Shown in pieces: positions 343 to 54,600 of a stretch of DNA of 64,000 nucleotides. This stretch comes from an uncultured virus (IMG/VR IMGVR_UViG_2558860259_000003) (Duplodnaviria > Heunggongvirae > Uroviricota > Caudoviricetes): the IMG/VR virus record IMGVR_UViG_2558860259_000003; one strand, 5' to 3'. The notes beneath the pieces are model-generated. The model did no database searches and was not told the origin of the DNA. It saw nothing but the letters and a program-made list of their open reading frames with translations. How positions within the stretch are numbered: the first letter of the stretch is position 1; every line of letters starts with the position of its first letter. Position numbers and translations under genes: made by a program.

Positions 343-472
343 TCGCTTATTTGCCAGAGGGTTACAGAGTGATTTATGGAAAAAGGAAATGGTATTTTAT
401 TAATTTCAGCATGAAACTATCACTTACCGTGCGGTTGGCTGGCAAAAATAGCATGTTAGGCTACTCTTAAAG

Positions 473-578
473 TGCATGGCTGAGTAAGCCCTGCATAAAT
501 GCCAACTTTTAGCGCACGGCTCTCTCCCAAGAGCCATTTCCCTAGACCGAATATAGGAATCGTATTCGGTCTTTTTTT
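473..578 (+). ncRNA. sdsR: SdsR (RyeB) Hfq-dependent small RNA; RyeA/SraC would overlap on the opposite strand
   Basis: Conserved core GCCAACTTTTAGCGCACGGCTCTCTCCCAAGAGCCATTTCC, terminator hairpin GACCGAATA..TATTCGGTC plus T-run, sigma-S-like -10 CTACTCT at 461-467; ends approximate. Confidence 0.88.
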
Positions 579-583
579 ATCTT
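555..583 (+). repeat. attL core (29-bp direct repeat)
   Basis: AGGAATCGTATTCGGTCTTTTTTTATCTT, identical at 59754-59782; adjacent to integrase. Confidence 0.9.
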
Positions 584-8054: not shown

Positions 8055-8861
8055 TTAGTCGTCGTAATGGGGGTAGGTCATTTCGTAAGCGTCTGGAATT
8101 TGATCCATCACTAAGAAACTGCCGCCGTAGTAAAGAGCTGCGATCAACTTATCGAAGTGGCTATATGCCTTACTGAGCTTCTTACCCAGTACACCACCAT
8201 CAACATGACCGTGATAAAGATCGTAAACAGGGTGACCTTCGTGGGTAATGGGCTGTTCAGTACGGCCTACACGATCTTTTTTAGGGGAAAAAGCAAGATA
8301 AACGTCGCAGCGATGTGCGCTTTCGACTTTGGAGCGGTAGCCATCTTCCGATGCCGCATGAAGGCCAACGGAAAAATAACCATCGACACAGTCACTATCG
8401 TTATACATAACCTGAGGGCGCTCCCATTGCTCTTCGGCAGCAAGCTCACTGTTTTCCTCAATGAATGCCCTCCACAAATCGGAGGCCATGATGAATTTGG
8501 GAATTGCTTCGTCGGTGGTGAATTCTTTCACCAGATCCAGAACGCGTTGTTGCATATCGCTCTGAATACCGGAGTTGGCCCATTGTTCGCGTACTGAGTT
8601 GATAACCAGTGAGTTATAGCCAGCCAAATCGACAACTTCAGAAATGTTGGTAGGCAGTGCAGCTTTAAACGCTTCATTCAGCAATTTGCCGAAATCGCCA
8701 TATGATCGGAATGCATCACTCACCAGGTCTTTGAACATCTTTTCAATGCCTTGATCGATGATTTCGACGGCCTTATCGCTGGTAGAGAAATTCACGCAAC
8801 GCTGAGTAAGTAGGGCGGAGAGGGTTAATTCTGGCTGTTGGTTATTATTTTGGTCGGTCAT
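8055..8861 (-). CDS. Phage hypothetical protein
   Basis: 268-aa ORF; start embedded in the AGGACTGACCAATGA motif. Confidence 0.75.
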   Translation of the reverse strand: MTDQNNNQQPELTLSALLTQRCVNFSTSDKAVEIIDQGIEKMFKDLVSDAFRSYGDFGKLLNEAFKAALPTNISEVVDLAGYNSLVINSVREQWANSGIQSDMQQRVLDLVKEFTTDEAIPKFIMASDLWRAFIEENSELAAEEQWERPQVMYNDSDCVDGYFSVGLHAASEDGYRSKVESAHRCDVYLAFSPKKDRVGRTEQPITHEGHPVYDLYHGHVDGGVLGKKLSKAYSHFDKLIAALYYGGSFLVMDQIPDAYEMTYPHYDD

Positions 8862-8887
8862 TGGTCAGTCCTTATTGCAGTTTGGTT

Positions 8888-10506: not shown

Positions 10507-12093
10507 TTAAACGTTGGCTGTAATGTGGCGGATGCGACCGGCAATGATTGCCGGGATCAGTTTTTCCAAAGCGGTAGCGCTGATTTTGATACCTTCGGCG
10601 GCAAGGTCGGCTTTTACATCGTTAATGACTTCCTTGATGCTCAAGGTTTTTTCATTCACTACCGGTGGAGTTAGCGTAGAACCGCCCAACTGTTTGGGGT
10701 AACTGAAGGTGTCAGGCGAATGCAACGGTTGATGCTGTTCCGGGGCGGCAACTTTGGGCTGTTCAGTCACATGTTGTTCCGCCGCCAGACGCTCTTTTTC
10801 TTTACGCTCTTCCTCCAACTTTTTCTGTTCACCGATCCGCTGGCCGATCAGCAATTTCAGGTGCTCGTGATCATTGCCAATGATCTGGCTGATGTCGGCA
10901 AACAGGTTTTTGTAGGCCGGTTCGATATCATCAAACAGCTTCAGGTTTGCTTGATACCTCTCACAAAGCTGGTTTGCTTCAATCTTGGCCCGCGCCAGTT
11001 CATCGTTGGCTGAGCCTTGCAGCGAGGTAACTGTTTTCTTGCCCTTAATTGCAGCGGCAAAATCAGCAGCAATTGCAGGAAGCCGCACGCTTCCCAACTG
11101 AACGTTAAGCGCGCTGATATGCTCATTCAGTGCAGTTTTTGCCTTGCTGATAATGTCAGCGCGTATCTCATCCTTGCGAGACTGCACAAGCCTGGTTAAA
11201 TCCAGGCGTTTCCTGCGCATCGCTTCACGTAACGTGTCGATAGTGCGAAAGAGGGTATCAATCTGCTCTGTCTGGGATAATGCCTGCTTCTTGATCAGGT
11301 CGAGTTCACTTTCTGCCTTCTCACAGAACTTCACCGTTTCTTCCGCATCGGCAAAGTCCTGATCAGTTGAGAGGTTGGTATTGATGGACTCAATAAACGC
11401 CAACGCTTGCCCCTGGTATACAGTCAAGTTTGACTGTTTAACCACACCCTCAATTTCCACCATCAGCGCTGGCAGGCGCATGATGCCTTTTGCTGCAGGC
11501 AGTTCTTTGATATCGGGTAGCGTGTAATTTTCCAGATCCTGTGCGAACTGGCTCCATCCGGAAATCAGCGATTCCACTCGACCAGCAACCGGCGTGTATT
11601 CCATCCAGACGAAGTTTTCTTCGGTACCATCTGAGCAGACAAAAATGACACGCCGCGCCCTGCTGACCAGTAACTGCTGTTCAAGTTGCCAGTAATACTC
11701 TGGCGAGAGGTCTTTCTGACGAACAGCTTCCGCCAGCGCAGCGCTCCACATTTTGTGCTCAAAGAGCGTATCTTCAGCCATGGTCATGCCATCGAACGAC
11801 GCCAGCATGTGGCCGGTGTCATCAATAGCAGTAGTAGGGTAGAGGTCATCACCGATCATGCTCTCTACGATAGTACGCGCCATGGACTCTTGCTTGTGGC
11901 CTTTATCGAACAGGTTGGTTTGAACCCAATCGCTGATTTCGCGCTCAGTGCCGATTGCCCTCATCTTGAGCAGGTCGTCACGGCGCATTTTGCTGGAAGC
12001 CGCCATCATGACCGGTGCTTCGCTGGCGGTGAAATGTTTGGCACGTACAGCGTGCCACTCAGGGGTTCCCTGTTGGACATTAATGATTTGCAT
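10507..12093 (-). CDS. YqaJ-like (lambda-exonuclease family) nuclease with long helical C-terminus
   Basis: QGTPEWHAVR..TASEA, LASFDG, FEHK, YYWQLEQQL. Confidence 0.88.
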   Translation of the reverse strand: MQIINVQQGTPEWHAVRAKHFTASEAPVMMAASSKMRRDDLLKMRAIGTEREISDWVQTNLFDKGHKQESMARTIVESMIGDDLYPTTAIDDTGHMLASFDGMTMAEDTLFEHKMWSAALAEAVRQKDLSPEYYWQLEQQLLVSRARRVIFVCSDGTEENFVWMEYTPVAGRVESLISGWSQFAQDLENYTLPDIKELPAAKGIMRLPALMVEIEGVVKQSNLTVYQGQALAFIESINTNLSTDQDFADAEETVKFCEKAESELDLIKKQALSQTEQIDTLFRTIDTLREAMRRKRLDLTRLVQSRKDEIRADIISKAKTALNEHISALNVQLGSVRLPAIAADFAAAIKGKKTVTSLQGSANDELARAKIEANQLCERYQANLKLFDDIEPAYKNLFADISQIIGNDHEHLKLLIGQRIGEQKKLEEERKEKERLAAEQHVTEQPKVAAPEQHQPLHSPDTFSYPKQLGGSTLTPPVVNEKTLSIKEVINDVKADLAAEGIKISATALEKLIPAIIAGRIRHITANV

Positions 12094-12914
12094 CGATAGG
12101 CTCCAATTTGCGGATAATTTCTTTCTGTTCTTCGGAGAGGGTAAACTTGGTGCTGACGGTGGCGATCACTGCTTCGGCTTTTTTGCTGCCAGATGCGATC
12201 ATCTTTTCCCAGCCTTCCAGGTTTGTGTTGAATTTGTCACTTGGGTAATGTGGCGGCGTCAGCGGCGTCTGGGTTTCCTTGGGGGGTGTAACATCCCTGA
12301 CGTCGCTGATATCCAGCGATTTACCTTCCATTTCTTCAGCTGTAGGCTGCTGCCCGACCTCAGGCCAGGCTTTGCGCAATGCCTGAGCTTCTGCGCATTT
12401 CGCTAATTGTCCGTAGGGGCGTTTTCTCCACATCGCGTTAGGTGCCTGGGTGTTTTTTTCCAGCTGTGGCATAGTTTTCTAGCCAGTATTCCTTCGCGTG
12501 ATACTCAGAAATTGAACCGTCAGGCCGTTCTTTTAGTACGGTGTACTGACACCACTCAGGGAAGGTGATTTCTACCTCTCCAAGCGTTTTGGTCACATCA
12601 GGCCCAAACTCAGGCTCTTTATCCCCTGCATGGTTGCCAGAACGGTCTGCTTGAATACGATACAAGCCGATACCTGGCATGACGACATCACGCATTTCAT
12701 AGCTGTTCGTGAGAGCATCCTTAACGCTCATGGGTACCAGGTGAACGGGCTTCATCAGCGGATCCAGTTGACGCGCCTTGCAGTAACTCACGGCCATAAC
12801 AACGGAATCATCGCGAGCGCCGGGGTAGATGCTGTTTTTCAACGCGTTCCAGGTAGGCTCATCAATGCCCATGGAAATGATGGCAGCCGGTAGGGTTGCA
12901 ACTGCATTACTCAT
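12080..12914 (-). pseudogene. bet: Bet/RecT-family ssDNA-annealing recombinase split by +1 frameshift
   Basis: N-half (YCKARQLDPLMKPVHLV, GIGLYRIQA) and C-half (MWRKRPYGQLAKCAEAQALRKAWPE) join if one base of T7 (12453-12459) is removed; span 835 = 3n+1. Confidence 0.85.
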
Positions 12915-13069
12915 TGGTCAGTCCTCAAAGAGTTACGGATAGCGAAACAAGCAACGCCGAAAGCAATGGCGCAGGTTTTGAGTGGATGGCGGCGGCGCTT
13001 GAACTGGTGAATATTGTGGCTGCCGATCCGGTGCAGATACTGGATATGTTGGACGGTGTGAGTAGGCAT
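12911..13069 (-). CDS. Small hypothetical protein
   Basis: GAGGAG RBS before MPTHTVQ; ends RTDQ* overlapping the bet start. Confidence 0.45.
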   Translation of the reverse strand: MPTHTVQHIQYLHRIGSHNIHQFKRRRHPLKTCAIAFGVACFAIRNSLRTDQ

Positions 13070-13213
13070 GATATTCTCCTCAGAGATCGGGGGTGGTTCC
13101 CCGGTCAACTTGCTTATGGCCTTTATTGGTCATTGGCCAGTCCTTAAAGATTCGCGGTTTGGTCGCCGCGTATCGGGATAGCCCCGCTTGCGGGGCTTTT
13201 CTCGTTTATGGGG

Positions 13214-16416: not shown

Positions 16417-16680
16417 TTAGATTATGCCGCGCGGTATCCGGCTGCATCCGCGCATTTTCTGGCGGGCCGCAGCGCTGAGTTGCCCCGGTGCCAGTAATTC
16501 ATCTTCTTTCACAGCACGCTTGCGCGGTTTCGGCGGTGCTGGCATGTCCGGCATCGCTTTACAGCGGGTGAGCACTAGAATGGATTTTTCAATGCGTTCG
16601 CTGCTGAGCTTGATGCGTTCCAGTTGCTCCTGGGCGCGGCGGCGTTTTGCCGATTTTGCTTTGGCTTTAATCATTGTCAT
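16417..16680 (-). CDS. Probable N-like early antiterminator
   Basis: Arg/Lys-rich N-terminus KAKAKSAKRRRAQE, basic 87 aa, downstream of pL/boxA and upstream of a terminator. Confidence 0.55.
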   Translation of the reverse strand: MTMIKAKAKSAKRRRAQEQLERIKLSSERIEKSILVLTRCKAMPDMPAPPKPRKRAVKEDELLAPGQLSAAARQKMRGCSRIPRGII

Positions 16681-16922
16681 TGGTCAGTCCTTAACTGTTT
16701 AAAGGCTTGGTCAGAGCCCATTGGGTAGATATGGTTTAGATAAACGGAAATGTTTTTCTTGGGTAAAACAGTCTCACCCAGATGCTTGATCACCGAATCT
16801 TTATCTGACTCACTGATCCCCATAGATTTTATGCTTGCCTTGATTAGGGCAATGTGTTGATTCAGCGTATCCATGCGACGAGCATTGTCGCTATAAATCA
16901 ATTGACAAAGGTGTCTTTGCAT
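16677..16922 (-). CDS. Hypothetical protein, first convincing ORF of the pL transcript
   Basis: AAGGA RBS; ends RTDQ* coupled to the N-like gene. Confidence 0.5.
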   Translation of the reverse strand: MQRHLCQLIYSDNARRMDTLNQHIALIKASIKSMGISESDKDSVIKHLGETVLPKKNISVYLNHIYPMGSDQAFKQLRTDQ

Positions 16923-17100
16923 ACTATTTGCATCCTTTTTTAAAGCAACTTACAAGATGGGCACCTTACGGGTGCCAATCGACCAGTTACGCCTTCCGGT
17001 GCCCTTTATGCTTCAGCAGCCTCATCAAAAGGAGGTGCATATAGCAATGGATCGAGCCGTTCCGCTGGTGTTGTATATTGCACCTGCAGCAGGTTTTGGT

Positions 17101-17302
17101 GATGTGGTGGCCGGTGCTGATCTCAGGCTTGTCTATTCAGGTGTTAGTCGCCACCTCCGAAGAGGGATATGCTTATGATTTTCACCTGCTTTATTGGTTA
17201 CTACGGCTTACCGGGTATTTACGCGACTTGTCTTACAGCCTGTCTTCTCCAGTAACCATCAGGGCGCGAACCCCGCGCATCAGCCTGCGCATTCACCACA
17301 TC
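17101..17302 (-). ncRNA. Structured tRNA-like RNA (C4-antisense-like) in the pL leader
   Basis: Closing stem GATGTGGTG/CACCACATC, 5' GCGCAGGCTGATGCGC hairpin, 3' T-arm-like GCCTGAGATCAGCACCGGC-CACCA; family assignment from memory. Confidence 0.55.
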
Positions 17303-17661
17303 TCAAAGCCAACTGCCCTTTGGGCCACACTCTCGCAGTGGCGGCGCCATGCCCTTGGTCGCTGTCGCATATAGCCGCTTATAACCGGTGCAGGTCTGGC
17401 CGTCCTGCTGCTTTACCGGAATCGCTTCATTTTGTAACCCAACCGTAACGGCGATTAATCGGGCTCCTAATAGGATTCGGGGCCTCTGTTAAAAAGGCAT
17501 TGCCATTGCTGGCTGCGGTCTGTCCGCGTTAGTTCTTCATGGGTTGATCCTCAATGTGAAAGGTTGAACAAAACAGGCTTAGTGATCGGCGGTCTATCAT
17601 CCAACCGAGTTGCACCGCGACGCGCGCCTGGTGGCGCTTATGTTGCTGTCGCTATCCTGTT

Positions 17662-17673
17662 TGTTAAAGAGCA
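17662..17673 (-). promoter_or_regulatory. boxA antitermination element (nutL); candidate boxB hairpin at 17624-17637
   Basis: TGCTCTTTAACA, the consensus boxA, about 15 nt downstream of the predicted pL start. Confidence 0.8.
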
Positions 17674-17693
17674 GTCCCAGATGGGATGCTTTG

Positions 17694-17722
17694 AATGTAA
17701 GTTTTTCTACGTAAACCGTCAA
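17694..17722 (-). promoter_or_regulatory. pL promoter with overlapping operator
   Basis: TTGACG-17 bp-TACATT; operator-like ACGTAGAAAAACTTACAT in the spacer, further copies near 17730 and 17771. Confidence 0.75.
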
Positions 17723-17823
17723 GAGAGAAATGTAGGTTTTTCTACAATTTTTAGTATGAGGCTGATTTTAATGTAGAAAAATCAACAAAAAGTTGTGGTG
17801 ATAGGGGGGGAGATGAGTAGGTG

Positions 17824-18180
17824 TTAAAGGTAAGTGAATAGCAGGTTTATTGCGTTGAAAATTGCCATGACACCAGCAACAGCAGATAGGGCAGCGATGA
17901 CCTTAGTAAAAAAACTAAGTATTTCTTGCTTTATTGTTCGAGATGCTCGCCATAAGCCAAGCCCAACATTCGTTATATAAACTCCATAACTAAATACAGC
18001 TATGGCTATTCCTAGGGCATTCCATTGTGCGAATTTTGAAAAAAACGTTACAGCAATACAGAATATAAGTGCAAAAACCAAATGAAAATACGTTCTTGTT
18101 ACACCATACTTTCCGAGAGATAGTTTTACTAAGAAGTTACTATTGTTATCTGTATCAGTTTCTGAGGATCTTAAAAGCAT
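17824..18180 (-). CDS. Membrane protein in immunity region (rex position)
   Basis: Three hydrophobic helices, AT-rich, downstream of cI. Confidence 0.65.
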   Translation of the reverse strand: MLLRSSETDTDNNSNFLVKLSLGKYGVTRTYFHLVFALIFCIAVTFFSKFAQWNALGIAIAVFSYGVYITNVGLGLWRASRTIKQEILSFFTKVIAALSAVAGVMAIFNAINLLFTYL

Positions 18181-18217
18181 ATGTTTTTACCTTGATTATT
18201 AAAACTTTTCAAAGAAA

Positions 18218-18448
18218 TTACTTAAGCCTTGATGCGACGAACCAGCCAACTGTCATACCTATAACACCTGAAATCACAAGCCCAAGTTCGGTTGTCTTTG
18301 CCAACAGGATAGCTGTAAGTATCCAGACTACGCCGAAAACCATTCCAAAATTATTATTCTCGCGGAGAGAGTCTTCCTTATTCCTTTCAATAGCATCAGC
18401 AATTTCTTGTTGCTCTTCTGGTGTGAATTTTCTTCCATTGATGGACAT
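18218..18448 (-). CDS. Small membrane protein in immunity region
   Basis: GAGG RBS right after the cI stop; two TM segments. Confidence 0.65.
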   Translation of the reverse strand: MSINGRKFTPEEQQEIADAIERNKEDSLRENNNFGMVFGVVWILTAILLAKTTELGLVISGVIGMTVGWFVASRLK

Positions 18449-18457
18449 TTTTAACCT

Positions 18458-19138
18458 CTAAACTGGTTTAATTTGATAAAAAACCACCCCTAGAATCTTG
18501 TAACCATCTCCCATTTTCAAAAATCTCATGTCGCTAGGGTGATCTGGATTAATTGATTTAAGGAACTCCTTGTTATCAATCAATTGGTACTGTTTTAATG
18601 AAGCTTCATCTTTTGTTGGTGATAAAGCTATGACAAACAATCCATTGGAAATGTCTGATGCATCAAAATTGAAATTCACGAAAATAATATCGCCTGGTTC
18701 AAATTTCGGCAGCATTGTTTCCCCTGTGATCTTTAATGCAAATGTTAATGGATCACACTTTATTGGGCATGCAAGCATCTCCTTTCCCACCAAAGAGGCA
18801 GCAGGAATATTTGGTGCATTAACAGCATCATCCCAGTTTATAAGCGGCACCATCCTCACTTCTTTTACACTTGCGCTGTGCAAAGCGGCCTGAGCTGAAG
18901 GCTCAACTGGCCCACGGTTATTAATAAGCCACTCAGGGGAGCATTTAAGGACTTGGATCACAGCCAAGAGCACCTTGTCTTTCATGCTTTCCTGGCTACC
19001 GTTTTCAATGTTGCTGATCGTTACGCGCGTAAGCTTTCGCTCGCCCTGGAGCAAGCGATTGATCTCTTTTACAGCATCCTCTTGAGTCAGTCCAAGCTGC
19101 TCACGTCGCCATCTAAAGCGTTCACCTAATGTTTTCAT
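18458..19138 (-). CDS. cI: CI-like repressor (HTH + S24 autopeptidase-like domain)
   Basis: TLGERFRWRREQLGLTQED..ISNIENG HTH; VPLINW, FALKITGETMLP..GDIIFV, SLKQY. Confidence 0.88.
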   Translation of the reverse strand: MKTLGERFRWRREQLGLTQEDAVKEINRLLQGERKLTRVTISNIENGSQESMKDKVLLAVIQVLKCSPEWLINNRGPVEPSAQAALHSASVKEVRMVPLINWDDAVNAPNIPAASLVGKEMLACPIKCDPLTFALKITGETMLPKFEPGDIIFVNFNFDASDISNGLFVIALSPTKDEASLKQYQLIDNKEFLKSINPDHPSDMRFLKMGDGYKILGVVFYQIKPV

Positions 19139-19186
19139 GCAACCACGATACGGAAAACTAACGTTAGTTTCATGACGTCAATTTTC

Positions 19187-19215
19187 TTGCTATAAAATGT
19201 AGAATAACTTACATT
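19187..19215 (+). promoter_or_regulatory. pR promoter with overlapping operator
   Basis: TTGCTA-17 bp-TACATT; operator ATGTAGAATAACTTACAT matches the pL copies. Confidence 0.72.
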
Positions 19216-19233
19216 TCGAGTTTGGAGGTGCCT

Positions 19234-19473
19234 ATGACCAAAACAGGCAGAACGCTGTATCAAATCCTTAAAGACAAGTATGGGAGTGACAGTGAGATCG
19301 CGAAGGCGTTCAGTGTTGAACGGCCAACAGTGTTCACCTGGCGCAAAACTACGCCGGAAAAAATCGCTCTTCTTTGCCATATCTCTCCCGAGATCCCGTA
19401 CACATACAACCCGGCCGAGTATGGCCGTAACCAAGAAAACTTGAGCCTGGTTCTAACCAAGCCAGCTCGTTAG
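19234..19473 (+). CDS. cro: Cro-like repressor
   Basis: Divergent from cI; GSDSEIAKAFSVERPTVFTW HTH; GGAGG RBS. Confidence 0.75.
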   Translation: MTKTGRTLYQILKDKYGSDSEIAKAFSVERPTVFTWRKTTPEKIALLCHISPEIPYTYNPAEYGRNQENLSLVLTKPAR

Positions 19474-19492
19474 CAGTAACAAGGACTGACCA

Positions 19493-19852
19493 ATGACCAC
19501 AATTTATCAACCAGGCGAAGGATCGGCAGGGGCTGCGGTAGCGTCTGGCGTCCGAAAGGATCTGCTATCGCGCAAGAAAGTGGGTAAGCACGGTTTGCCG
19601 TTCCACATCGTGCGTGATGACCAGATAAAAACCCGCTGGACGGAAAGCGAGGCGGTGGCCATCAAGATCACCGCCGATGCCATGGCGTCAAACCCCGCAG
19701 TAGAAACCAACGTGGCTGCGATCCGGGGATTTCTGGCGATGTTTGCCGAAGCCCCTGAAATGCTGGTTCACGTCCACAACGAACTGAAAGTCGCCAAGTT
19801 ACCAGCGCCCGAGTGGCTTCCAGCTCTCCCACACAAGGATCTGCAACCATGA
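19493..19852 (+). CDS. Hypothetical regulator in CII position
   Basis: Position between cro and replication genes; start within the AGGACTGACCAATGA motif; function inferred from synteny only. Confidence 0.55.
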   Translation: MTTIYQPGEGSAGAAVASGVRKDLLSRKKVGKHGLPFHIVRDDQIKTRWTESEAVAIKITADAMASNPAVETNVAAIRGFLAMFAEAPEMLVHVHNELKVAKLPAPEWLPALPHKDLQP

Positions 19853-20034
19853 AGCAACAAGACAGCAAAACGCAATCCGTTGATCTGATATCCAGACTTG
19901 TCGGTAAGAAGTTGGGTATTGCCGGGCATGAGGCCCGGCGTTTGGCAATCACAGGGACTCTGGCAGGGGTAACGCAGGCGTACTTCTCTCGTGATAGTGA
20001 CAAGAATGGGGCGCCTGCTTCGGGGTCGCAGTAA
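19849..20034 (+). CDS. Small hypothetical protein
   Basis: Coupled on both sides (ATGA, TAATG). Confidence 0.5.
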   Translation: MKQQDSKTQSVDLISRLVGKKLGIAGHEARRLAITGTLAGVTQAYFSRDSDKNGAPASGSQ

Positions 20035-21092
20035 TGGCTATTGTGAGAACGAATCGCCAGTTCGGCTTTACGCTGATAGACAACCAGGCGATCGGCAACA
20101 AGGCGCTCAGTTGGGCCGCTGAAGGGCTGCTGCATTACCTGCTATCCAAGCCGGACGGATGGACGGTTAACCCGTCACACCTGTGGCAGGAGAAGAAGGG
20201 CGTTCGTGGCTGCGGGCGTGATGCAGTTTACAAGCTGCTGAACGAACTGATCGAAGTGGGATTTATTCACCGTTTCCAGTTGCGTGATGCCAAAGGTGCG
20301 ACCGAAGGATTCGATTATTACGTTTACGATGCGCCTCAGCCACCTCCTGAAAATCAGGAAATGGAGCAACCGCAGGCACCGCAAGGCGTAGAGCCGAATC
20401 CTGAAAATCAGGATGTGGATGAACAATCGTATCCTGAAAATCCGTATCCTGAAAATCAGGACATTAGTAAATACGGATCTCGATCTAACACTGATCTCTC
20501 TTCTCTGGGCGATGAGCAAAAATTGGACGATGCACCACCGCCTCAAAACCCTCACGGCAATGCCATTTTGGATAACCGACCACCAGCAGCGCAACCATCG
20601 CCACAAGTTGGCATGTTCCCGATGTCACTCGACTGGAAGCCAGGGGAGGATTTCGCTGGTGTTGCCCACCTGTCGGGCCTCATCGATGCCGAGTTTCTTC
20701 CGGAGCAACTGAACGAGTTTCGGATCTACTGGCAACCAACAGGCCGGGTTTACTTCCACAGCCAGTGGCAGCAGAAATTTATCCAGTCACTGAAACATCA
20801 AAAATCACGAGGGCAACGCTATGAGCAACCGGGGCGGGCCGAAGCCAATAACGGCGGCGGTAATGCAACGGATCGCTTCCAGCAGGGACTCGCCGCGATC
20901 CAGGCCGTACAGGAGAAATACGGCTACGGCGGCAGAACAGGAGGCGATTCGGGAGATTGTTTTGACGGTGATTTTGCCCATGTATCCGATCCACTGGCCG
21001 GCATGGGTGAGTCGAATGAATACGGCGGTACTGGCGGAGGTATTTGGGACGGAGCTAACGCGGGTTCTGGTGCAGGAGGCTATCAACCCTGA
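20034..21092 (+). CDS. Replication initiator (N-terminal wHTH, DnaT-like C-terminal domain)
   Basis: FTLIDN..LSWAAEGLLHYLLSKPDGW; FPMSLDWKP..LNEFRIYW..QWQQKF; internal iterons. Confidence 0.8.
   Translation: MAIVRTNRQFGFTLIDNQAIGNKALSWAAEGLLHYLLSKPDGWTVNPSHLWQEKKGVRGCGRDAVYKLLNELIEVGFIHRFQLRDAKGATEGFDYYVYDAPQPPPENQEMEQPQAPQGVEPNPENQDVDEQSYPENPYPENQDISKYGSRSNTDLSSLGDEQKLDDAPPPQNPHGNAILDNRPPAAQPSPQVGMFPMSLDWKPGEDFAGVAHLSGLIDAEFLPEQLNEFRIYWQPTGRVYFHSQWQQKFIQSLKHQKSRGQRYEQPGRAEANNGGGNATDRFQQGLAAIQAVQEKYGYGGRTGGDSGDCFDGDFAHVSDPLAGMGESNEYGGTGGGIWDGANAGSGAGGYQP
20345..20461 (+). repeat. Four iterons, probable phage replication origin
   Basis: TCCTGAAAATCAGGA at 20345, 20399, 20447 and variant TCCTGAAAATCCGTA at 20432. 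Confidence 0.8.
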
Positions 21093-21579
21093 GCAGTTAA
21101 ACCATGCCATCCGTGCGGCGCCAGGGCGAAAGTTTTATCCGTTCCCAGCACCACCAGACTGGTTGGCAATGGCGAAAGAACTTATCGATGCTCGGCTACC
21201 AACGGTCGATGCGGTGATGGCAGAGTTTGAAGGTTACAGCGCCAGGCGGTCAGACTACGCCAGCCCTGAAGAGTACGAATGGCAATTGCCGGTGATGTAC
21301 TGGATTGTAACCGACATGCGCGAGGCGATGCTGCAGTACAACCACGGTACTGCCGAGTTGCGGAAAGTGGCCGATCGGCTGTTGCGGCAATGGGAAAAGA
21401 AACTACATAACGGGGAGGCGATACCTGAACCAGTGATGAGGATCGGATACACAGAAACACCGAAAGACGCTGGAAACGAGCGGGGATTGACCACCCTCGA
21501 ATCAGAAAAAAAAGGCGCTGAATTCCTGCTGAAAATCCGGCAACGAGTCGCGCAAAGCAAAGTAAGGACTGACCAATGA
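20821..21579 (+). CDS. Replication protein P-like helicase loader
   Basis: [32 protein letters not shown] as in lambda P-like proteins; follows the initiator. Confidence 0.7.
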
Positions 21580-22715
21580 TTAATTTCAAAAACGCACTGA
21601 TTTACCGCCTGTCTGGCGGTATTGATCTCAGTAAGTTGGAAGAGCAACTGGCCGTGTTCGCATTCACGCCATGCGGTAGCCAGGATATGGCGAAAGCCGG
21701 TTGGATTCCGCCACTGGGGGAGGTGCTGACGCATACCGCTAACGGGATGACACTGCTGGTGGTACAGCGGGAAGAGAAGATCTTGCCCGCCGCCGTAATC
21801 AAGAAAGAGCTGGACGGCAAAGTCGCCAAACTGGAAGCCGAACAACATCGTAGACTGAAAAAAACTGAGAAGGACTCACTGAAAGACGAGGTGATCCAAA
21901 CACTGATACCGCGTGCCTTCAGTCGGTACCATAAAACACAAATCTGGATTAACGAAGGGGCTGGGTTAATCATCGTTGACACCGCCAGCGCCAAACGTGC
22001 CGAAGATGCGTTGGCATTCCTGCGTAAAACCCTGGGCTCACTGCCTGTGGTACCGCTGGCAATGGAAAGCCCCGTCGAGATGACGCTGACCAATTGGGTA
22101 CGTTCCAGCCATGCTCCTACCTGGTTCAAACTGCAGGATGAGGCGGAACTGAAAGCCGTGCTGGAAGAGGGCGGGATCATTCGTTGCAAACACCAGGATC
22201 TGTGTGGCGATGAGATAGGCATGAATATTAGAGCCGGGAAGCTGGTCACTAAGCTGGCGCTGGAATGGCGCGAGCGGATCAGCTTTGTGCTGACCGATTC
22301 ATGCAGCCTGAAAAAGCTGGAATTCAGCAGCCAGTTACTCGATCAAAACGATGATATCGACCGTGATGATTATGCCGCGCGGTTTGATGCTGACTTTGTG
22401 CTGATGACTGGGGAACTGGCGGCGCTGATCGCATACTTGATCGAGGTACTTGGCGGTGAGATGGAGCATGGTACCGATGCGAAAGAAACTGTTGTTGATA
22501 GTGCCGATGATACCGAGCAGGACGATCTCTATCCTAAGGCGGTTGAGTTTGTTCAGCGGGTAGGGCGCGCCTCCATTTCAGGTGTACAGCGTGAGTTCCG
22601 TATCGGCTACAACCGGGCCGCCCGCATCATTGAGCAAATGGAATATGGCGGCGTTGTCTCCGCTCCTGCCCATGATGGTAGCCGCACAGTTCTGAGCGGC
22701 GGAGGTGCTCAATGA
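21576..22715 (+). CDS. rdgC: RdgC recombination-associated protein with C-terminal FtsK-gamma domain
   Basis: [31 protein letters not shown]-terminal [36 protein letters not shown]. Confidence 0.92.
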
Positions 22716-26995: not shown

Positions 26996-27005
26996 GGACT
27001 GACCA

Positions 27006-27431
27006 ATGACCGACCAAACCAATGACGAAGGCCAGATCGACAACATTCTGGCGTTTACCAAGCGGTTCGACAGTAATGCCGACATCCGCGAAATGAGGAA
27101 CTTTGTAGAGGATAAGCCTAAGGATGGCCGCCGCTGCCGTCACGACAAAGTATTGGTTTCAGAGCACGAACGTAAAGTGACGTGCCGCGTTTGCGGTGCC
27201 GTGTTGGAGGCGTTCGATCACCTGCTGGCGCTGGCTAAGGGGGAGACAAAGATTGAATGGGAACTTAAAACCCTGCGTATGGAGATCACTGCGCACAGGG
27301 AAGGGCTGGAGAAGCTGAAACGTGAAGAGGTGAACACAAGAGCACGGATCAAAACTGCTCAGTTCAAGCTAAACGACCTGAATATGGCGATCGACGCCGC
27401 AGAAAAGGTGAAGGCAGGCAAGAATGGCTAA
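27006..27431 (+). CDS. Hypothetical zinc-ribbon/coiled-coil protein
   Basis: CRH..CRVCG; start within the shared 15-mer. Confidence 0.7.
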   Translation: MTDQTNDEGQIDNILAFTKRFDSNADIREMRNFVEDKPKDGRRCRHDKVLVSEHERKVTCRVCGAVLEAFDHLLALAKGETKIEWELKTLRMEITAHREGLEKLKREEVNTRARIKTAQFKLNDLNMAIDAAEKVKAGKNG

Positions 27432-27756: not shown

Positions 27757-28192
27757 TAGCATTGATGCCATCGGCTACGTAGGCACAAAAGCCAAGCTGG
27801 AGGTGCGCGGTGGCAAGGTTAAGAAGATCAGGCACGAGCCGGAGCTGGAAGAGCAGGCCGCGCTGATCAAGTGGGCAGATAAAACCGTTATAGATGGTAT
27901 CAAGATCGGTGAATACCTGATCCACATTCCCAACGAAGGAAGGCGCGGGCCTAAGGCTGCCAGGGATGCAAAACGGCTGGGGTTACGCGCAGGAGTATCA
28001 GATTTGTTCTTGGCATTGCCGCGAGGGGGCTATGCCGGACTTTGGTTAGAGATGAAGGCGATCGATGGGAAGCCAACAGCAGAACAGGTGTCATGGCTGA
28101 ACAAGATGATAGGTTCAGGCTACGCAGCCATTCTGTGCTATGGTTTCGTCCAAGCAAAAGAGCGAATTATGGCTTATGTGAATCAGGACTGA
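27749..28192 (+). CDS. VRR-NUC domain nuclease
   Basis: HIPNEG..GLRAGVSDL..LWLEMKA..GKPTAEQ. Confidence 0.85.
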   Translation: MLNSIDAIGYVGTKAKLEVRGGKVKKIRHEPELEEQAALIKWADKTVIDGIKIGEYLIHIPNEGRRGPKAARDAKRLGLRAGVSDLFLALPRGGYAGLWLEMKAIDGKPTAEQVSWLNKMIGSGYAAILCYGFVQAKERIMAYVNQD

Positions 28193-28195
28193 CCA

Positions 28196-29011
28196 ATGAC
28201 CAATGCAATAGAACAACTCATAAAAATGCACGATCCGCGCTGTGTAAGTGCGGAGGCAATGAACATAGGCCGTGGTCGTGCCTCCTTGACCAGGGAGCAA
28301 ATCCTCGGTGCTTTCGCAGCTGCTCAGCACCAGCATTCGCTGGGCCTTGATATTCTGATGGCTAAATACCGCAGCGATTGCTTGGCAGAACAGCGCGTAC
28401 GGATGGCGATTAACGTATGGGTACACCAGCGACCACACCCGGCACGCGCAGCGGCTGCATGTCAGTTGGCCCTCAGTATCGTGCTAGAGCGCAATGTGCC
28501 TGCGCAGATTGCACATATTGCATCGTTACTGCGACGGTACGGGCCACGGACAGCGCAAACCCGAAAGAAGATTGAAACCCTACAGACGCAGATCAAGTAT
28601 CTGGAGAAGCAGCGTAGCAAAACCAGCATCAGCGATAACACATATCATGAGATCGGTTTTGACATTATTGATATTAACCGCAGCATTGAGCGTGAGCGCA
28701 TATCACTGCGGGCGTGGTCAGAACAGCATGCCACGACAACCAACCTTTGCCCGCGCTGTTCCGGCACTGGCAGAATCGCCAAGCCACACCCAGCAGAATG
28801 TGAAGAGTGCAACGGCAAGGGGAAAATACCGGCCAACATGGAGCACCTGCGTAAATCGATGCGTATCATAGGGGCTGAGGTAGCGCCTGGTGACTGGGCT
28901 GGTAAATATGCCGGTTTGGTTAAGAGGTGCATGGATTGGTTGTATATTGAGGAATCGAATGCGACATTAATTTTGTCTGAACGACTTCAAAATGAGAGAC
29001 AGGCGTTCTAA
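28196..29011 (+). CDS. Probable Q-like late antiterminator with zinc finger
   Basis: Last nin-region gene before lysis; CPRCSGTG..CEECNGKG finger; start within the shared 15-mer. Confidence 0.7.
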   Translation: MTNAIEQLIKMHDPRCVSAEAMNIGRGRASLTREQILGAFAAAQHQHSLGLDILMAKYRSDCLAEQRVRMAINVWVHQRPHPARAAAACQLALSIVLERNVPAQIAHIASLLRRYGPRTAQTRKKIETLQTQIKYLEKQRSKTSISDNTYHEIGFDIIDINRSIERERISLRAWSEQHATTTNLCPRCSGTGRIAKPHPAECEECNGKGKIPANMEHLRKSMRIIGAEVAPGDWAGKYAGLVKRCMDWLYIEESNATLILSERLQNERQAF

Positions 29012-29053
29012 CGGATTATTAGCATGATGTTTTCACATATATGGAGATAAAAA

Positions 29054-29446
29054 ATGAGTACGAGTGCTCGCAAGTATGACATTTTTGAAGCAGCCTCTTT
29101 CGCTAATGAAAATGCAAAATGTGACGTGCATACATCTGATAATGGTATTGAAATACAGTGGGCATGGAAAAATGGGATTTTTGATATGTCAATTACCCCA
29201 GAACAAGCCAATGATGACTTTGCATCTTTGCGGGAAATTTTCAGAAGTGCTAGAGAAATGAGAGGGATGGATTTCCTTCCTGCTTTGGAATCTCAAATTG
29301 AGATCATTACAGCTATGCAGTTGGCTGCTAAAGGGATTAAAGCTGATAAAAATAGTGAGCTAGCATTAGGCGCTTTGCAAAAGGGGATCGAAGCTTTAAC
29401 GGCTAATATCCGTGACTTGATAAAAGATGCATCACCTAAGGATTGA
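29054..29446 (+). CDS. AT-rich hypothetical protein (moron)
   Basis: GGAG RBS, 130 aa, lower GC than flanks. Confidence 0.6.
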   Translation: MSTSARKYDIFEAASFANENAKCDVHTSDNGIEIQWAWKNGIFDMSITPEQANDDFASLREIFRSAREMRGMDFLPALESQIEIITAMQLAAKGIKADKNSELALGALQKGIEALTANIRDLIKDASPKD

Positions 29447-29484
29447 TTCGTCGCTAAAAACGCGCTAAATTTCGGAAAGATGCC
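29443..29484 (+). promoter_or_regulatory. Late promoter 1 (pR'-like)
   Basis: TTGATT-17 bp-TAAATT with shared ACGCGC and CGGAAAGAT; followed by two terminator hairpins. Confidence 0.7.
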
Positions 29485-29560
29485 GAGGTATGCTTAAAAG
29501 CTGCCTCGGTTTTTTATTGGTCAGTCCAAAGCCTGCATGGTTCGCCCAGCAGGCTTTTTT
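29478..29560 (+). ncRNA. Candidate ~80-nt two-hairpin sRNA antisense to the shared early-gene RBS motif
   Basis: Hairpin 29483-29509, linker TTATTGGTCAGTCC (29514-29527), terminator hairpin 29528-29560; expression not shown. Confidence 0.5.
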
Positions 29561-29586
29561 ATTTCCCCGAACCGGGGAGGTGGAGT

Positions 29587-29826
29587 ATGAAAATGCAGGA
29601 GAAATCAAGCCTAGCGGCCTACATCTCTTCGGGATCCTTGGTTGTCATAGGGAAAATAGGTGCGTGGTTTAACGATCTTACACTCAATGAATGGGCGATC
29701 GTCATCGGCATTATTATGGCTACCGTGACATGTGCCGCCAATATCTACTTCCAGCGCAGACAAACACGTGCAATTGAAAAAGCCTCTCAAGTTGACACGA
29801 TAATCATTACTGGACGTGTGAAATGA
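29587..29826 (+). CDS. Holin
   Basis: Small TM protein with dual-start-like MKM, LNEWAIVIGI..NIYFQRR; precedes endolysin. Confidence 0.8.
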   Translation: MKMQEKSSLAAYISSGSLVVIGKIGAWFNDLTLNEWAIVIGIIMATVTCAANIYFQRRQTRAIEKASQVDTIIITGRVK

Positions 29827-30365
29827 CGATTAAGAATAAAATCGTTACCGCCATCTGTTCGGTGTCTGCAATTATTGGGCTTATAGAGGCAGAGGAATAT
29901 ATTTCTGCAAACGATAACCATCTCCGATTTTCAAAAGCTGCAATGGAGGTTATGGGGAATGCCGAAGGGTGCCGGCGCGAACCATATCTTTGCCCAGCGA
30001 ATATTATGACGCAGGGTATCGGACATACAGGAAAAGGGGTGGCTGTTGTCAACAAAGCCAGCGACAAGCAGATAGCCCGTTGGTTTGCTGAGGATCAATT
30101 GGGTGCTCAGAATTGCATTGAAATTAATGTTGAGCGAAAGCTGGGAAAAAAAATCCCTCAAGGTGCATTCGATGGGATCGGGAGCTTTATTTTTAACGTG
30201 GGGTGTCCTCAGTTTACATCGTCCACGATGTACCGCTATCTGCTGAACGGCAAAATCGTAGCCGCTTGTGAACAATTACCACGCTGGATTTATGCCGGAA
30301 AAACTATTCTCCCAGGGCTAGTAGCCCGAAGAGAGAAAGAGAAAGCACTCTGTCTATCTCGCTGA
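29823..30365 (+). CDS. Endolysin (GH24 lysozyme, possible SAR type)
   Basis: EGCRREPYLCPANIMTQGIGHT, FIFNVG, ACEQLPRW, LPGLVARREKE; hydrophobic N-terminus. Confidence 0.9.
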   Translation: MTIKNKIVTAICSVSAIIGLIEAEEYISANDNHLRFSKAAMEVMGNAEGCRREPYLCPANIMTQGIGHTGKGVAVVNKASDKQIARWFAEDQLGAQNCIEINVERKLGKKIPQGAFDGIGSFIFNVGCPQFTSSTMYRYLLNGKIVAACEQLPRWIYAGKTILPGLVARREKEKALCLSR

Positions 30366-36371: not shown

Positions 36372-36410
36372 TTGCATCAAAAATAAATACGCGCTAGATT
36401 TCGGAATGAT
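36372..36410 (+). promoter_or_regulatory. Late promoter 2 (upstream of scaffold/capsid)
   Basis: TTGCAT-17 bp-TAGATT with ACGCGC and CGGAATGAT; followed by terminator hairpins at 36414-36445 and 36493-36517. Confidence 0.7.
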
Positions 36411-36626
36411 ATCAAGCCTCGCCTTTAAAAAAGCGGGGCTTTTTTATTTCCATCGGTCAGGTCAGTCTTTGTTGTTGGTATTTTTGCGTATTTGCCCGCC
36501 ATTGTGCGGGCATTTTTGTTTGTGCCGATAAGCACTTTGTCATTCAGAGCGCTTATTCGCACGGGCAGCGAAACGCCTATATCCATTTCGGATCTATCCG
36601 ACAAATAGACATGCAGGAGTTGTATC

Positions 36627-51493: not shown

Positions 51494-51520
51494 ATAACGC
51501 GCTAGATTACAGAAAGATGC
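51480..51520 (+). promoter_or_regulatory. Late promoter 3 (upstream of giant gene)
   Basis: TTAACA-17 bp-TAGATT with ACGCGC and CAGAAAGATGCC; two terminator hairpins follow (51520-51553, 51566-51598). Confidence 0.7.
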
Positions 51521-51632
51521 CAGAGTGTGCTTAGAAGCAACTCTGGTTTTTTTATGCCTCAAATTGGCCCTGCCAGGTTTTCCTGGTGGGGCTTTTTTGT
51601 AACGACAAAACTCATAAACTCTGGAGCCAAAC

Positions 51633-54600
51633 ATGGCCAATGACCCTCAACAACAGCGACCTGAAGAACAAATACAAAATGCAAATCGCGAATCCCTAAA
51701 CATCCGGCAACCAGGTGAAACTACCCATACCGGGTTTGATTGGGAACAAGTGCGCAAAGCTCGCGAGGCCGCTGGACGTAAAACAGTGGTTAATGATCCG
51801 AGTATTGGTGCTGGAGATGTTATGCGTGCAGTGAGTTCCGCGCCGTTTGAAATGATCAAATCAAGTGCGCAACTCTTTGAGGCCGGTAATGAATTCCTTG
51901 ACAGAAAAGCTGCTGATTATCGCTCAGGAGAGAAAAAGCCACTGATAGATATCAAAGTGGATCCAGCGATGCTTCAAGTGATGCGTGATAATTCAGGTAA
52001 CGTATTATCAGAGGCTGGATCGGCAACAATAAACCATGCGGGGAAACTTGCAGGCGCAGCTACTGAGGCTATCCAGAGTGGCTACAGCGAGGGGGCAAAG
52101 CAGGCGGCAGCCATGCCATTTGTTGTGGAGGATAAAGAGAAAAACTTCCATTTAGGCTCTGGCTTCTTTGATAAAGACGCCTGGCTGATGAATGCGATTC
52201 CCACCGTCACGCAGATACTTGTCGCTGGAGGAACATCTAAGCTTGGCTCTGCTGCGACCCGCAATGTTGTTGAAAAAGCAATGTTCAACAGGTTGAGCCA
52301 AAAGTTACCGGAGGAGGCTGCGCGCCAAATGGCCAAGGAAACTGCTGAATTGGCAGCCGCCAGGGCAGGTAAAACAGCATTCGTCGGTGCCATGACGGCC
52401 AGCGCGCAGGGTAGTGGCGGTAATGATATGCGCGAACAGATCAATATCCTACCGTTTCACGATCTGATTGAGAGCCCAACATTTCAAAAGGCTTTTAACA
52501 GCATCGATACTAACCCCGCGAACGCCAACCTCAGCGACACACAAAAGTTAACGTTGGCACGCAGCCAGGTTGCGGATCAAGCCGCGAGTGCAGTTACTGC
52601 TGATCCGAAAATGTTGATGTTAAATTTAGCGGCGTCCACTTTAGGTGACCACACGTTATTCCGCATGATGACACAAAGAGGTGTTGCATCTGGATTATTG
52701 CCTAGAGCTACAGGAATGGGGACTCGTGGGGTTTTAGGTGCCGCTGCAGAAGGCATCACGGAGTATGGTCAAGGTTCTGGGCTACGTTATACCCAGAACC
52801 AAGAACTCATTGGTAAGGCTGCGCAAAAAATTGATCCCATGAAAGATGTTCTATTGACGGGTTTCAACCAGGCAGTAGTGGGCATGGGGATCGGTGGTGC
52901 CATAGGGGCTGGTAGCGGTGTCCGAGGTCGTCGATCAGCACCAGAACAACAGCCGCCGGTCACCACCCCGGACATCAACGCACAACAAGACGCTTCACCG
53001 CAGCCAACGCCAGGGCAGTTTGCCAACGAAGAGGCCGCAGGCGCAGCAGCGACACGCGTTGATAATTTCCGTGATATCCCTGCATACCTGCGCCAAGATC
53101 CGCGTATCCAAGGTTTTGCCGAAGATAACGAAGTTCAGCAGGCATTGGCAGAACAACAGGTATCTCCAACAGCAGAAGAGTTGATTCAGCAGCAAATTGA
53201 AGCTGGTGATCAAGGTTTCACGCCAGAAGAGTTGGCAGCACAAGAGCGTGCAGATCAAGCTCGTGAAGAGCTCATCCCGCGACTGCCAGCACCCGGTCAA
53301 ACCTCGGTGATCGCCATGCCTGGCGAAATAGCTAATGTGAATGTTGATGAGGTGCAGGCTGGTACTGGGCCGCAGTTCAGCGGAGGTGAACGAGTGCGGG
53401 GGCAGGAGTTTATTCCGCGTGAAAATCAACCAAGTAGTGAAGTGGGACGCGCAAACCAAACCTATGATGGCGAAGTGGTACCAACAAACGCTATTGAGGA
53501 CAGGAACATCATTTTTACCGATGGCCCAACACATAATACTGATGAGATACAGTCAGGAGAACCACCTGCATTTACGAGAGGGGAAACTCGTAATCAGCGT
53601 AATTTACGTGAGTATGCTAATGCCGTTGGTGCGAATAACCAATCTGGCACATTACCGGATGGTCGGCATCATGTTAATGGCACACCTGTTGATGCACAAA
53701 CGGAAGCCTATGCTAAGGGGCAATTGCCTGGGGAGTTGATGTTTATGTCCAGCGGTAGGCCGTTTCCGAGTGAACATTACGCCAACGTTTCGCGTTGGGG
53801 AAAAACTCCAGGTTCATCTATTGAGCCAGTCGAAGGAGGTTTTGCTGTTCGTATGCCGCCAAAAGAAGTAACAGCCACACCCCAGGTTGACAATAGTGCT
53901 GGTGAACTGATCGTTTCTGCCAGCGGAAAGCCATTTGCCTCGGAACGAGCCGCTGGCGCATCCCGCTGGGGGAAAACGCCTGGAGCTGCTGTAGAGCCTG
54001 TTGAGGGTGGCTTTGGTGTCAGGATGCCAATTGATAAATCTGGTCAAACTGAAGCAACTCAACTGACGGTAAATCCCCGGCAGCCTGAGGTTCAGAACCG
54101 GCAGATGACCACTCCAGAAGAAACAAACCGGATTGATGACTTTGGTGAAGAGATTAAAGGTGCAGCGAAACACAAATGGGGTAAGTTCTCTGAAGCCATG
54201 GAACAGCAAACTACGGATGAACAGTATCGTACTGAACCGCTTTCTAAACTGTTTCCGCAGCCAGACTACAGCAAGATGTCTACAGATGGCGTAAGCCATG
54301 ACAAACTTGCGATGATCGCTATTCTTCGAGCACAGATCCCTGCAACTAAACCGAAACATCTCCTGCAACGTTGGGTAGACTCCACTCACGCAATGAAAAC
54401 GCTGTCATCTCAGGTGCTGAATGGGCAAGTCACCATTGATGAGTTACGTCAACGAATGAGCAGCGGGGCGCTGGCGGGTATGAAAAATACTCACGATCTC
54501 ATTGCTTCGCTGCCACCCGAGCAGATGGCCAGCGCATCAAAGTACCGCGTTAGCCATTCAAGCTATTCTGTTTATGATGGCAAGAGATATCCAAACGGTC

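Follow-up and report, generated by a model that had tools for sequence, protein, structure and literature searches.

An unpaired complement to a shared ribosome-site tag in the late leader of a lambdoid prophage: a candidate RNA regulator of early genes

Introduction

Lambdoid phages make a short leader RNA from the late promoter pR′; 6S RNA of lambda and StxS of the Shiga toxin (Stx) phages are RNAs of this same kind. StxS has been described as an Hfq-binding regulatory small RNA (sRNA) that arises when the pR′ late transcript of Stx phages terminates early (Sy, Lan, Tree 2020, PMC7547250). We report here on a comparable element, leader 1, in a lambdoid prophage carried by DNA of an uncultured virus of the Caudoviricetes (IMG/VR record IMGVR_UViG_2558860259_000003; the 64,000 nucleotides that were analysed are called the window below). 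Leader 1 contains an unpaired 12-nt linker, the anti-tag, which is the exact reverse complement of a sequence, the tag, found at the ribosome-binding sites (RBS) of early genes of the same prophage. The leader RNA may act on these genes by base pairing through this linker, which we also call the seed.

Leader 1 is like StxS, as described there, in that it would be a short RNA whose synthesis begins at a Q-dependent late promoter and ends at a terminator, upstream of lysis and late genes, and hence a by-product of antitermination endowed with a base-pairing seed. Two features of the arrangement of pR′ and its terminator tR′ are found here as well: a Q-family gene lies upstream, with a 130-aa open reading frame (ORF) in between, and intrinsic terminators are predicted ahead of the holin gene; the same terminator layout recurs at promoters 2 and 3 of the window. 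Leader 1 nevertheless differs from StxS on several points. The targets given for StxS in that account are the host gene rpoS and stx1, whereas the tag is common to early genes of the phage itself; no match between the two RNAs was found in sequence or in Rfam; and the seed of leader 1 stands behind a first terminator, so that it is gated by read-through.

For the tag itself, the closest parallel is the start-associated sequence (SAS) of Cluster K mycobacteriophages, an asymmetric 13-bp motif at the starts of many non-structural genes, which extends beyond the needs of a Shine-Dalgarno (SD) sequence and is absent from the host (Pope et al. 2011, PMC3203893). In four phages, a single reverse copy lies away from any gene start, and the passages of that article devoted to the motif leave open whether it is read by RNA or by protein (PMC3203893). 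The tag is likewise a 13-bp asymmetric sequence, placed in one orientation at non-structural gene starts and rare in the host. Unlike it, the SAS has the consensus GGGATAGGAGCCC and belongs to another host phylum and another phage type, so the tag is an analogue rather than a member of that family. The same passages propose no function and no anti-tag RNA for the reverse copy, whereas here the reverse copy sits in a defined late leader.

Antisense RNAs acting on lytic regulators include anti-Q (paQ) and OOP of lambda and sar of P22, which control Q, cII and ant. The CI RNA of phage P4 is an antisense immunity RNA acting on the P4 alpha operon. Shut-off of many early mRNAs at their initiation regions is achieved in T4 by RegA, a protein translational repressor. 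In phages P1 and P7, c4 is a phage RNA that exerts anti-RBS control on a phage mRNA, as set out in a review (PMC12197685). Leader 1 would share with c4 and P4 CI an exposed sequence that pairs with the ribosome-binding region of phage mRNA and blocks translation. These two RNAs are, however, processed from an immunity operon and act on one target operon (ant, and the P4 alpha operon), whereas the RNA here would come from a late leader, at a distance of 10 kb from the CI-like repressor gene, and would have about eight dispersed targets in both early operons. Leader 1 resembles paQ, OOP and sar as a candidate for antisense control of a lytic regulator in a lambdoid phage; those RNAs are cis-encoded, fully complementary and specific for a single target, whereas it would be trans-encoded, with a 12-nt seed and many targets. 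RegA differs in being a protein that recognizes loosely similar AU-rich starts, where we propose an RNA reader and an identical tag. The tag and anti-tag would fall within known antisense and sRNA control and would not be a separate kind of system. A preliminary description of this DNA had stated that no equivalent was known; this needs to be tempered, as related ideas exist in StxS from pR′, in P1 c4 and in the Cluster K SAS.

Results

A tag shared by early genes, and its complement in a late leader

A search of the window for GGACTGACCAAT with at most one mismatch yielded nine matches, against 0.24 expected, and this number was reached in none of 100 shuffles. The nine consist of seven exact sense copies, one sense copy with one mismatch (13132) and one exact inverted copy (29516-29527), the linker of leader 1. 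Both central observations of the preliminary description are thereby borne out: the tag forms the SD, spacer and start of seven to eight early genes (seven exact starts and one with a mismatch), and the linker is its exact reverse complement, which extends to 14 nt through a G.U and then an A-U pair. The sense copies are as follows.

8860..8871, minus strand: exact tag of a 268-aa gene (8055-8861)
12913..12924, minus strand: exact tag of the gene of a RecT-family annealing protein (12438-12914; Pfam/PHROG search)
13132..13143, minus strand: tag with one mismatch (GGACTGGCCAAT), opening a 17-codon ORF only
16679..16690, minus strand: exact tag of an 87-aa gene with an arginine-rich N-terminus, called N-like in the preliminary description
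19483..19494, plus strand: exact tag of a 119-aa gene in the CII position; the orthologue is tagged in four relatives
21566..21577, plus strand: exact tag of an RdgC-FtsK-gamma gene (21576-22715; RdgC Pfam 3.5e-112)
26996..27007, plus strand: exact tag of a 141-aa gene (27006-27431)
28186..28197, plus strand: exact tag of the Q-like antiterminator gene

Each of the eight sense copies is a stop codon joined to GGACTGACCAATG and has the ATG of the following gene at its end; with its last base the tag measures 13 bases, GGACTGACCAAT(G). The seven exact copies open ORFs of 87-379 aa. Four of the eight belong to the leftward operon, and the late region of the window contains none. Because the register with stop and start codons is fixed, the function of the tag is most likely exerted at the mRNA level. 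Among the targets that had been named earlier, RdgC, the RecT-family protein (then called Bet), the Q-like gene and the gene in the CII position hold good. The labels N-like and CII found no support, as neither the 87-aa protein, distinguished by its arginine-rich N-terminus only, nor the 119-aa protein has a family match in PHROG or Pfam.

The tag with one mismatch (GGACTGGCCAATG) stands at the head of a region (13080-13143, minus strand) that holds a 17-codon ORF only; it may be a decayed gene start or the start of a tiny peptide gene.

In the nearest genome compared (5.5 Mb), nine exact tags were found, for about 0.7 expected by chance, and eight of them lie inside the prophage. The ninth was considered as a host target and set aside: it is apparently inside a coding sequence of the other strand, and was taken as a chance occurrence. 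Among the papers covered by a literature search, there was no match to the motif in a phage context, the five matches to GGACTGACCAAT being unrelated eukaryotic, viral or primer sequences, and none to its complement or to RNA spellings.

Anatomy of leader 1

The elements of leader 1 and the first gene behind it are listed below. The promoter and the terminators were called from folding and from conservation in relatives, not from a consensus scan; such a scan did not call the two terminators, whose loops exceed 8 nt.

29443..29471, plus strand: late promoter 1, with -35 TTGATT (29443-48), a 17-bp spacer ending in ACGCGC and -10 TAAATT (29466-71)
29476..29481, plus strand: AAAGAT, a -10-like element of the initial transcribed region, near-invariant in 25 unique modules and present in all module types
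29482..29515, plus strand: hairpin 1 and T-run, forming predicted terminator 1 (by folding, hairpin 29482-29510 and T-run 29510-15)
29516..29527, plus strand: anti-tag ATTGGTCAGTCC, exact complement of the RBS tag, unpaired and conserved in relatives
29528..29564, plus strand: hairpin 2, with a UUCG-type apical loop, and T-run, forming predicted terminator 2 (by folding, hairpin 29528-29557 and T-run 29555-60; conserved)
29587..29826, plus strand: holin gene (PHROG 20 holin, 2.1e-15), the first late gene after leader 1

In relatives, promoter 1 takes the form TTGACC-17-(ATACGCGC)TAAATT, and two sequences, (AT)ACGCGC before the -10 and AAAGAT after it, are conserved in 25 unique modules. Q is known to load at a binding element together with a sigma-dependent pause element; by analogy, AAAGAT is a candidate for the latter. 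Transcription probably starts at about 29476-29479.

Folding of 29478-29572 gave both hairpins, with the 12 nt of the anti-tag unpaired in the centroid structure (minimum free energy -36.5 kcal/mol, z -4.3). Terminator 1 has a stem of 9+3 bp followed by six U, and among the 25 unique modules three base pairs of hairpin 1 are changed on both sides with pairing kept. RNAalifold on these 25 modules recovered hairpin 1 and mis-drew hairpin 2 owing to alignment gaps; hairpin 2 is therefore taken from single-sequence folds. The order promoter, terminator 1, unpaired 12-nt anti-tag and terminator 2 put forward in the preliminary description is thus upheld by folding and conservation. A leader RNA of about 86 nt, with its 3′ end at terminator 2, is predicted, and by prediction it has the architecture of an sRNA: a single-stranded seed flanked by structure, then a Rho-independent terminator with a U-tail. 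Rfam searches at gathering score across the window returned SraC/SdsR only, the best E-value within 29300-29700 being 2.1. Two small ORFs covering the element (29490-29672, plus strand; 29465-29608, minus strand) were rejected because the duplicated form found in relatives (see below) adds 20 nt and shifts the frame.

Conservation of the loop of terminator 2 (29536-29549, GCATGGTTCGCC, with a GG-UUCG-CC apical stem-loop) extends to a second phage group whose leader is otherwise different, which exceeds what a plain terminator needs.

Two late leaders stand out as predicted partners of the tag

Three late-promoter modules were found in the window, at 29460, 36389 and 51497, each with a conserved ACGCGCTA(A/G)ATT, a -10-like (A/T)GAT element and two tandem hairpin/T-run units. 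By analogy with lambdoid pR′, the three are presumably Q-dependent late promoters. The features of the second and third are these.

36389..36530, plus strand: late promoter 2 module (ACGCGCTAGATT, hairpin/T-run, linker, second terminator)
36455..36471, plus strand: partial anti-tag GGTCAGGTCAGTCTTTG in the unpaired linker of leader 2; pairs with UAAGGACUGACC..UGACC, duplex -24.3 kcal/mol
51497..51600, plus strand: late promoter 3 module, without anti-tag; best duplex -12.4 kcal/mol

The copy in leader 1 had been described as the only antisense one outside a gene start. This did not hold, since leader 2 has a partial anti-tag with complementarity to the extended junction. This sequence, GGTCAGGTCAGTCTTTG, corresponds to the entire junction (stop, tag, ATGACC) in reverse complement, from which it departs by a 2-nt deletion and by two transitions that each keep a G.U pair. 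Within the window, the 8-mer GACTGACC is confined to the seven exact tags and to the linkers of leader 1 and leader 2 (36460).

Duplex energies were computed between the 19-nt junction UAAGGACUGACCAAUGACC and 63,342 segments of 24 nt taken from both strands, with the sense copies masked. Leader 2 (36449) ranked first, at -24.3 kcal/mol, and leader 1 (29505) second, at -24.0. Against a background of -6.05 (sd 2.56) both lie at z of about -7, and the next best segment reached -19.2. Accessibility of the linker, a check suggested in the preliminary description, came out in favour of pairing: opening the seed of leader 1 costs 1.9 kcal/mol, and the net interaction is -14 to -23 kcal/mol with the eight targets.

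The same comparison was extended to relatives. A scan of IMG/VR with the promoter pattern returned 102 loci and 79 unique modules. Against the tag, 21 leaders of the promoter 1 type and one of the promoter 2 type reached -21 kcal/mol or lower, and another of the promoter 2 type -17.4; the remaining 56 of the 79 went no lower than -13.0. The minimum in a null set of 300 random segments was -16.6.

Apart from the question of pairing, the number of late-promoter modules, three per genome here and two to five in relatives, is in itself unusual, as it would place several Q-dependent late promoters in one lambdoid phage.

Tag and anti-tag are kept together in relatives

The family was sampled with 401 genomes of 178 genera; a 241-nt query around the element matched 14 of them, belonging to 10 genera. 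In the alignment of relatives, promoter, hairpin 1, linker and hairpin 2 are kept as one unit. The exact anti-tag is found in seven species genomes (two of Serratia, two of Pectobacterium, two of Brenneria and one of Symbiopectobacterium), in addition to nine unrelated chance hits. Four relatives (G336, G128a, G193 and G103) have intact early regions, with proteins 38-77% identical to those of the window. In all four, the tag is present at seven to eight gene starts, mostly orthologous, and the anti-tag in the leader after Q. The flanks of orthologous starts differ between relatives while the tag is kept. Since the tag is conserved beyond the SD and the proteins have diverged to 38-77% identity, something probably reads the whole 13-mer. 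In all intact relatives that were examined, the start of Q has the tag, with 0-2 extra A.

The preliminary description had asked whether motif and anti-motif co-vary. Relatives keep them together, and one, G103, does co-vary: its tags are mostly GGACTAACCAATG (G>A) and its linker is ATTGGTTAGTCG (C>U), plus a terminal mismatch. Elsewhere among intact phages, the linker differs by C>U with G.U pairs kept, as in the metagenomic phage L343, with linker ATTGGTTAGTCC and G-type tags. The only central disruptive change, ATTGGGCAGTCC, is that of G400, a remnant without early genes.

Among IMG/VR loci, 28 unique regions follow a Q homologue (51-77% identity), and the anti-tag is present in every one of them, 11 times in single and 17 times in duplicated form. 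In the duplicated form, ATTGGTCAGTTCCGGTCAGTCC, the second copy occupies a 12-nt hairpin loop and the first has C>U with the G.U pair kept. Two structures thus expose the seed: as a single copy it lies in a free linker, and when duplicated, in the 12-nt loop of a hairpin. In a second phage group (G403, G405), Q is only 28% identical, promoter and linker are different, and the tag stands at five to nine genes; there, GUCAGUCC stands unpaired directly after terminator 1 of the lysis leader, twice in G405.

Among the relatives examined, there was none that could validly be taken as intact, with tags and without anti-tag; this does not rule out such cases elsewhere. Several candidates of one or the other kind were discarded. 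G036, G244 and G400, with an anti-tag and no tags in the 40 kb upstream, are remnants in which tblastn found no early genes, and are uninformative for that reason. G404 (CheckV 100%) has tags and no anti-tag, its lambdoid late region being outside the record, and G407 is a 15-kb fragment. In the relatives with other linkers (G328, G128b, G205, G179), no shared start motif and no complementarity to their own linkers was found, which is consistent with the rest and adds nothing to it. Of the 44 loci with at least three tags, 22 have the anti-tag, each locus reaching only 10 kb to either side; most of those lacking it are from contigs, judged by name, whose other loci carry it, while L263, L275 and L297 could not be placed.

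Two observations were made in passing on these genomes. The IMG/VR provirus G404 (L301-L303) is a composite, in which a tagged lambdoid early-region fragment adjoins a Mu-like prophage (transposase A/B at 16875-19990; PHROG scans). G103 has four tandem small genes about 200 nt apart (19544-20141 of a joined 40-kb stretch, L063 plus reverse-complemented L066), each opening with another common cassette, GGGAGGCGACCATG or a close variant, a second start tag.

Prophage setting

The layout of the prophage is lambdoid. The leftward operon includes genes for RecE-like and RecT-family proteins and others. The rightward operon includes replication genes, RdgC, methyltransferases, NinB/Orf, an HNH nuclease and the Q-like antiterminator (28196-29011). 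Holin, endolysin, spanin, terminase and structural genes make up the late region after the Q-like gene. Features not listed above are these.

18458..19138, minus strand: CI-like repressor gene (profile search)
28196..29011, plus strand: Q-like antiterminator gene (PHROG 127, anti-termination protein Q-like, E 1.3e-13), with its RBS tagged (28186-28197)
29054..29446, plus strand: 130-aa ORF with no function assigned, inserted between the Q-like gene and late promoter 1

The 130-aa ORF has no PHROG or Pfam match and no homologue among the relatives compared. In relatives, the Q homologues lie directly upstream of the same promoter module, with the promoter as close as 30-37 nt past the Q stop, and the distance between the two varies from 30 to 740 nt, which points to the junction of Q and promoter 1 as an insertion hot spot of the moron type. 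Searches among isolated phages returned little: blastn of 28900-29900 gave no match in the collection, and the only tblastn match of the Q-like protein was a Pasteurella phage protein with 26% identity.

The prophage adjoins the ryeA/ryeB (SraC/SdsR) sRNA genes and is integrated near them: SraC/RyeA and SdsR/RyeB are at the left edge of the window (436-582; Rfam 153 and 106 bits). The RecT-family annealing protein is encoded in two pieces, by overlapping ORFs (12438-12914 and 12080-12472, minus strand) that correspond to the N- and C-terminal halves of PHROG 2449. Both halves are matched by tblastn in three relatives (G128a, G193, G103), and instead of a pseudogene this may be an arrangement in two genes, or with a frameshift, that is conserved. 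Downstream of late promoter 3, a single ORF of 2481 aa was noted (51633-59078).

Discussion

RNA-RNA pairing that occludes SD and AUG is the simplest reading of these data, because the only other sequence matching the tag is that of the unpaired linkers of late leaders, in antisense. Whether the leader RNA is indeed an anti-RBS regulator of the early regulon, Q included, by base pairing is in our estimation evenly balanced, and each step from transcription onward is what we infer. The observation made in the preliminary description is thus confirmed and extended, and its interpretation supported in part.

The regulation could work as follows. In this lambdoid prophage family, the leader of the late transcript, which depends on Q, would incorporate an anti-RBS seed. 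Because terminator 1 lies upstream of it, the seed would be transcribed only by read-through, as a leak in the lysogen or by Q-modified polymerase, and transcripts passing terminator 1 would carry it. In the lysogen, unmodified polymerase would yield small amounts of a leader RNA that stops at terminator 2, measures about 86 nt and has the shape of a classical sRNA (structured 5′ hairpin, U-rich single-stranded seed, terminator with U-tail). When Q acts, the seed would find itself in the abundant 5′ leader of the long late mRNA. It would pair with the SD, spacer and AUG of tagged early mRNAs, block ribosome entry and perhaps trigger decay. This would amount to a Q-gated, early-to-late translational shut-off with negative feedback on Q, while the leak RNA of the lysogen would dampen stray early expression, and possibly also that of related superinfecting phages sharing the tag. 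As terminator 1 gates the seed, we rate late shut-off and feedback on Q slightly above immunity of the lysogen.

Several points weigh against such a role. Most unmodified transcripts should lack the seed, given that terminator 1 precedes it, and a consensus scan did not call promoter 1, TTGATT-17-TAAATT scoring 8/12, under the cut-off. The whole module of about 100 nt is 86-89% identical across genera, the loop of hairpin 2 included, so that the invariance of the seed is unremarkable beside its neighbours. The seed is unchanged in two of three prophage remnants without early genes, and its persistence is thus independent of targets, at least in the short term. Sense tags are most variable (G/A/C) at central position 6, where a mismatch hurts a 12-bp duplex most, which a dominant pairing constraint does not predict. 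Co-variation amounts to one lineage, G103, and the relatives are not independent of one another. Finally, loci were fetched by the promoter pattern or by the tag itself, which biases the co-occurrence counts by ascertainment; for this reason, and because the phages are related, the comparative counts are not independent tests.

The alternative that best survives is that of a passenger copy. The tag would be an optimised translation-start or module-boundary cassette spread by recombination, and the leader copy an inverted junction fragment, inert as RNA, which rides with a strongly conserved and horizontally mobile promoter-terminator module. The equal conservation of module and seed, the persistence of the seed in remnants without targets and the insertion hot spot between Q and promoter 1 all fit this scenario, as does the copy of leader 2, which resembles the reverse complement of the whole junction (stop, tag, ATGACC) with a 2-nt deletion. 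An inert fragment is nevertheless hard to reconcile with a seed that is kept in 28 of 28 regions downstream of Q, and in the second phage group despite a different surrounding leader, that is always unpaired or in a loop, and that is enriched only in leaders among all transcribed DNA. Moreover, a recombination cassette repeated in inverted orientation would favour inversions and might be expected to be lost. All in all, we hold the passenger scenario to be improbable.

Somewhat further down we place a role in cis or another RNA role, in which the tag is read by the ribosome or by a phage or host RNA-binding protein, and its complement acts in cis only, for instance on the start of Q some 0.9-1.3 kb upstream in pR read-through transcripts, or in leader processing or terminator efficiency. 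Such a role would account for the tagged start of Q in every intact relative, with the seed downstream on the same strand; the central variability of the tag suggests that its two halves (SD; ACCAATG) are conserved for reasons other than a duplex, and double terminators are generic to all three late leaders. It leaves aside the tags of the leftward operon (four of eight), which are never in cis with the seed, and the copy in leader 2, 8 kb from Q; and no protein candidate was found. It is very improbable that a protein binds the 12-bp sequence as double-stranded DNA in either orientation, the leader copy being one more site: the complement is the same duplex DNA, so that co-occurrence and the change in G103 would fit, whereas a DNA site does not need sense copies that are all in fixed register with a start codon directly after a stop, leader variants keep RNA pairing (C>U wobble) and not DNA identity, the 2-nt deletion of the leader 2 copy is tolerated by a bulged RNA duplex and breaks a DNA site, and the duplicated form places the seed in a hairpin loop.

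Returning to pairing between leader RNA and early mRNAs, a bolder generalization, speculative and in our opinion unlikely to hold as a whole, would be a tag/anti-tag translational switch. A temperate phage family would mark its early regulon, Q included, with one identical ribosome-site cassette and keep the anti-tag in late leaders, so that switching late transcription on would switch early translation off in one step. Because the tag is common to heteroimmune relatives, RNA leaking from a resident prophage could also damp their early genes on superinfection and so exclude them independently of the repressor. The same logic might apply to the lone reverse copies of the SAS in Cluster K.

If regulation by the leader RNA is real, it would constitute a portable circuit, in which one antiterminator-gated seed of 12 nt controls about eight dispersed genes with feedback on the antiterminator built in, and the pair of tag and anti-tag would be a ready-made orthogonal translational switch for engineering. 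It would provide a testable answer to the question, open since 2011, of what reads the start-associated motifs of phages. The principle exemplified by StxS, that of pR′ leaders as regulators, would be extended from host targets to the phage's own temporal programme. For the related prophages of Serratia, Pectobacterium and Brenneria, it would mean a route of cross-exclusion that does not depend on the repressor.

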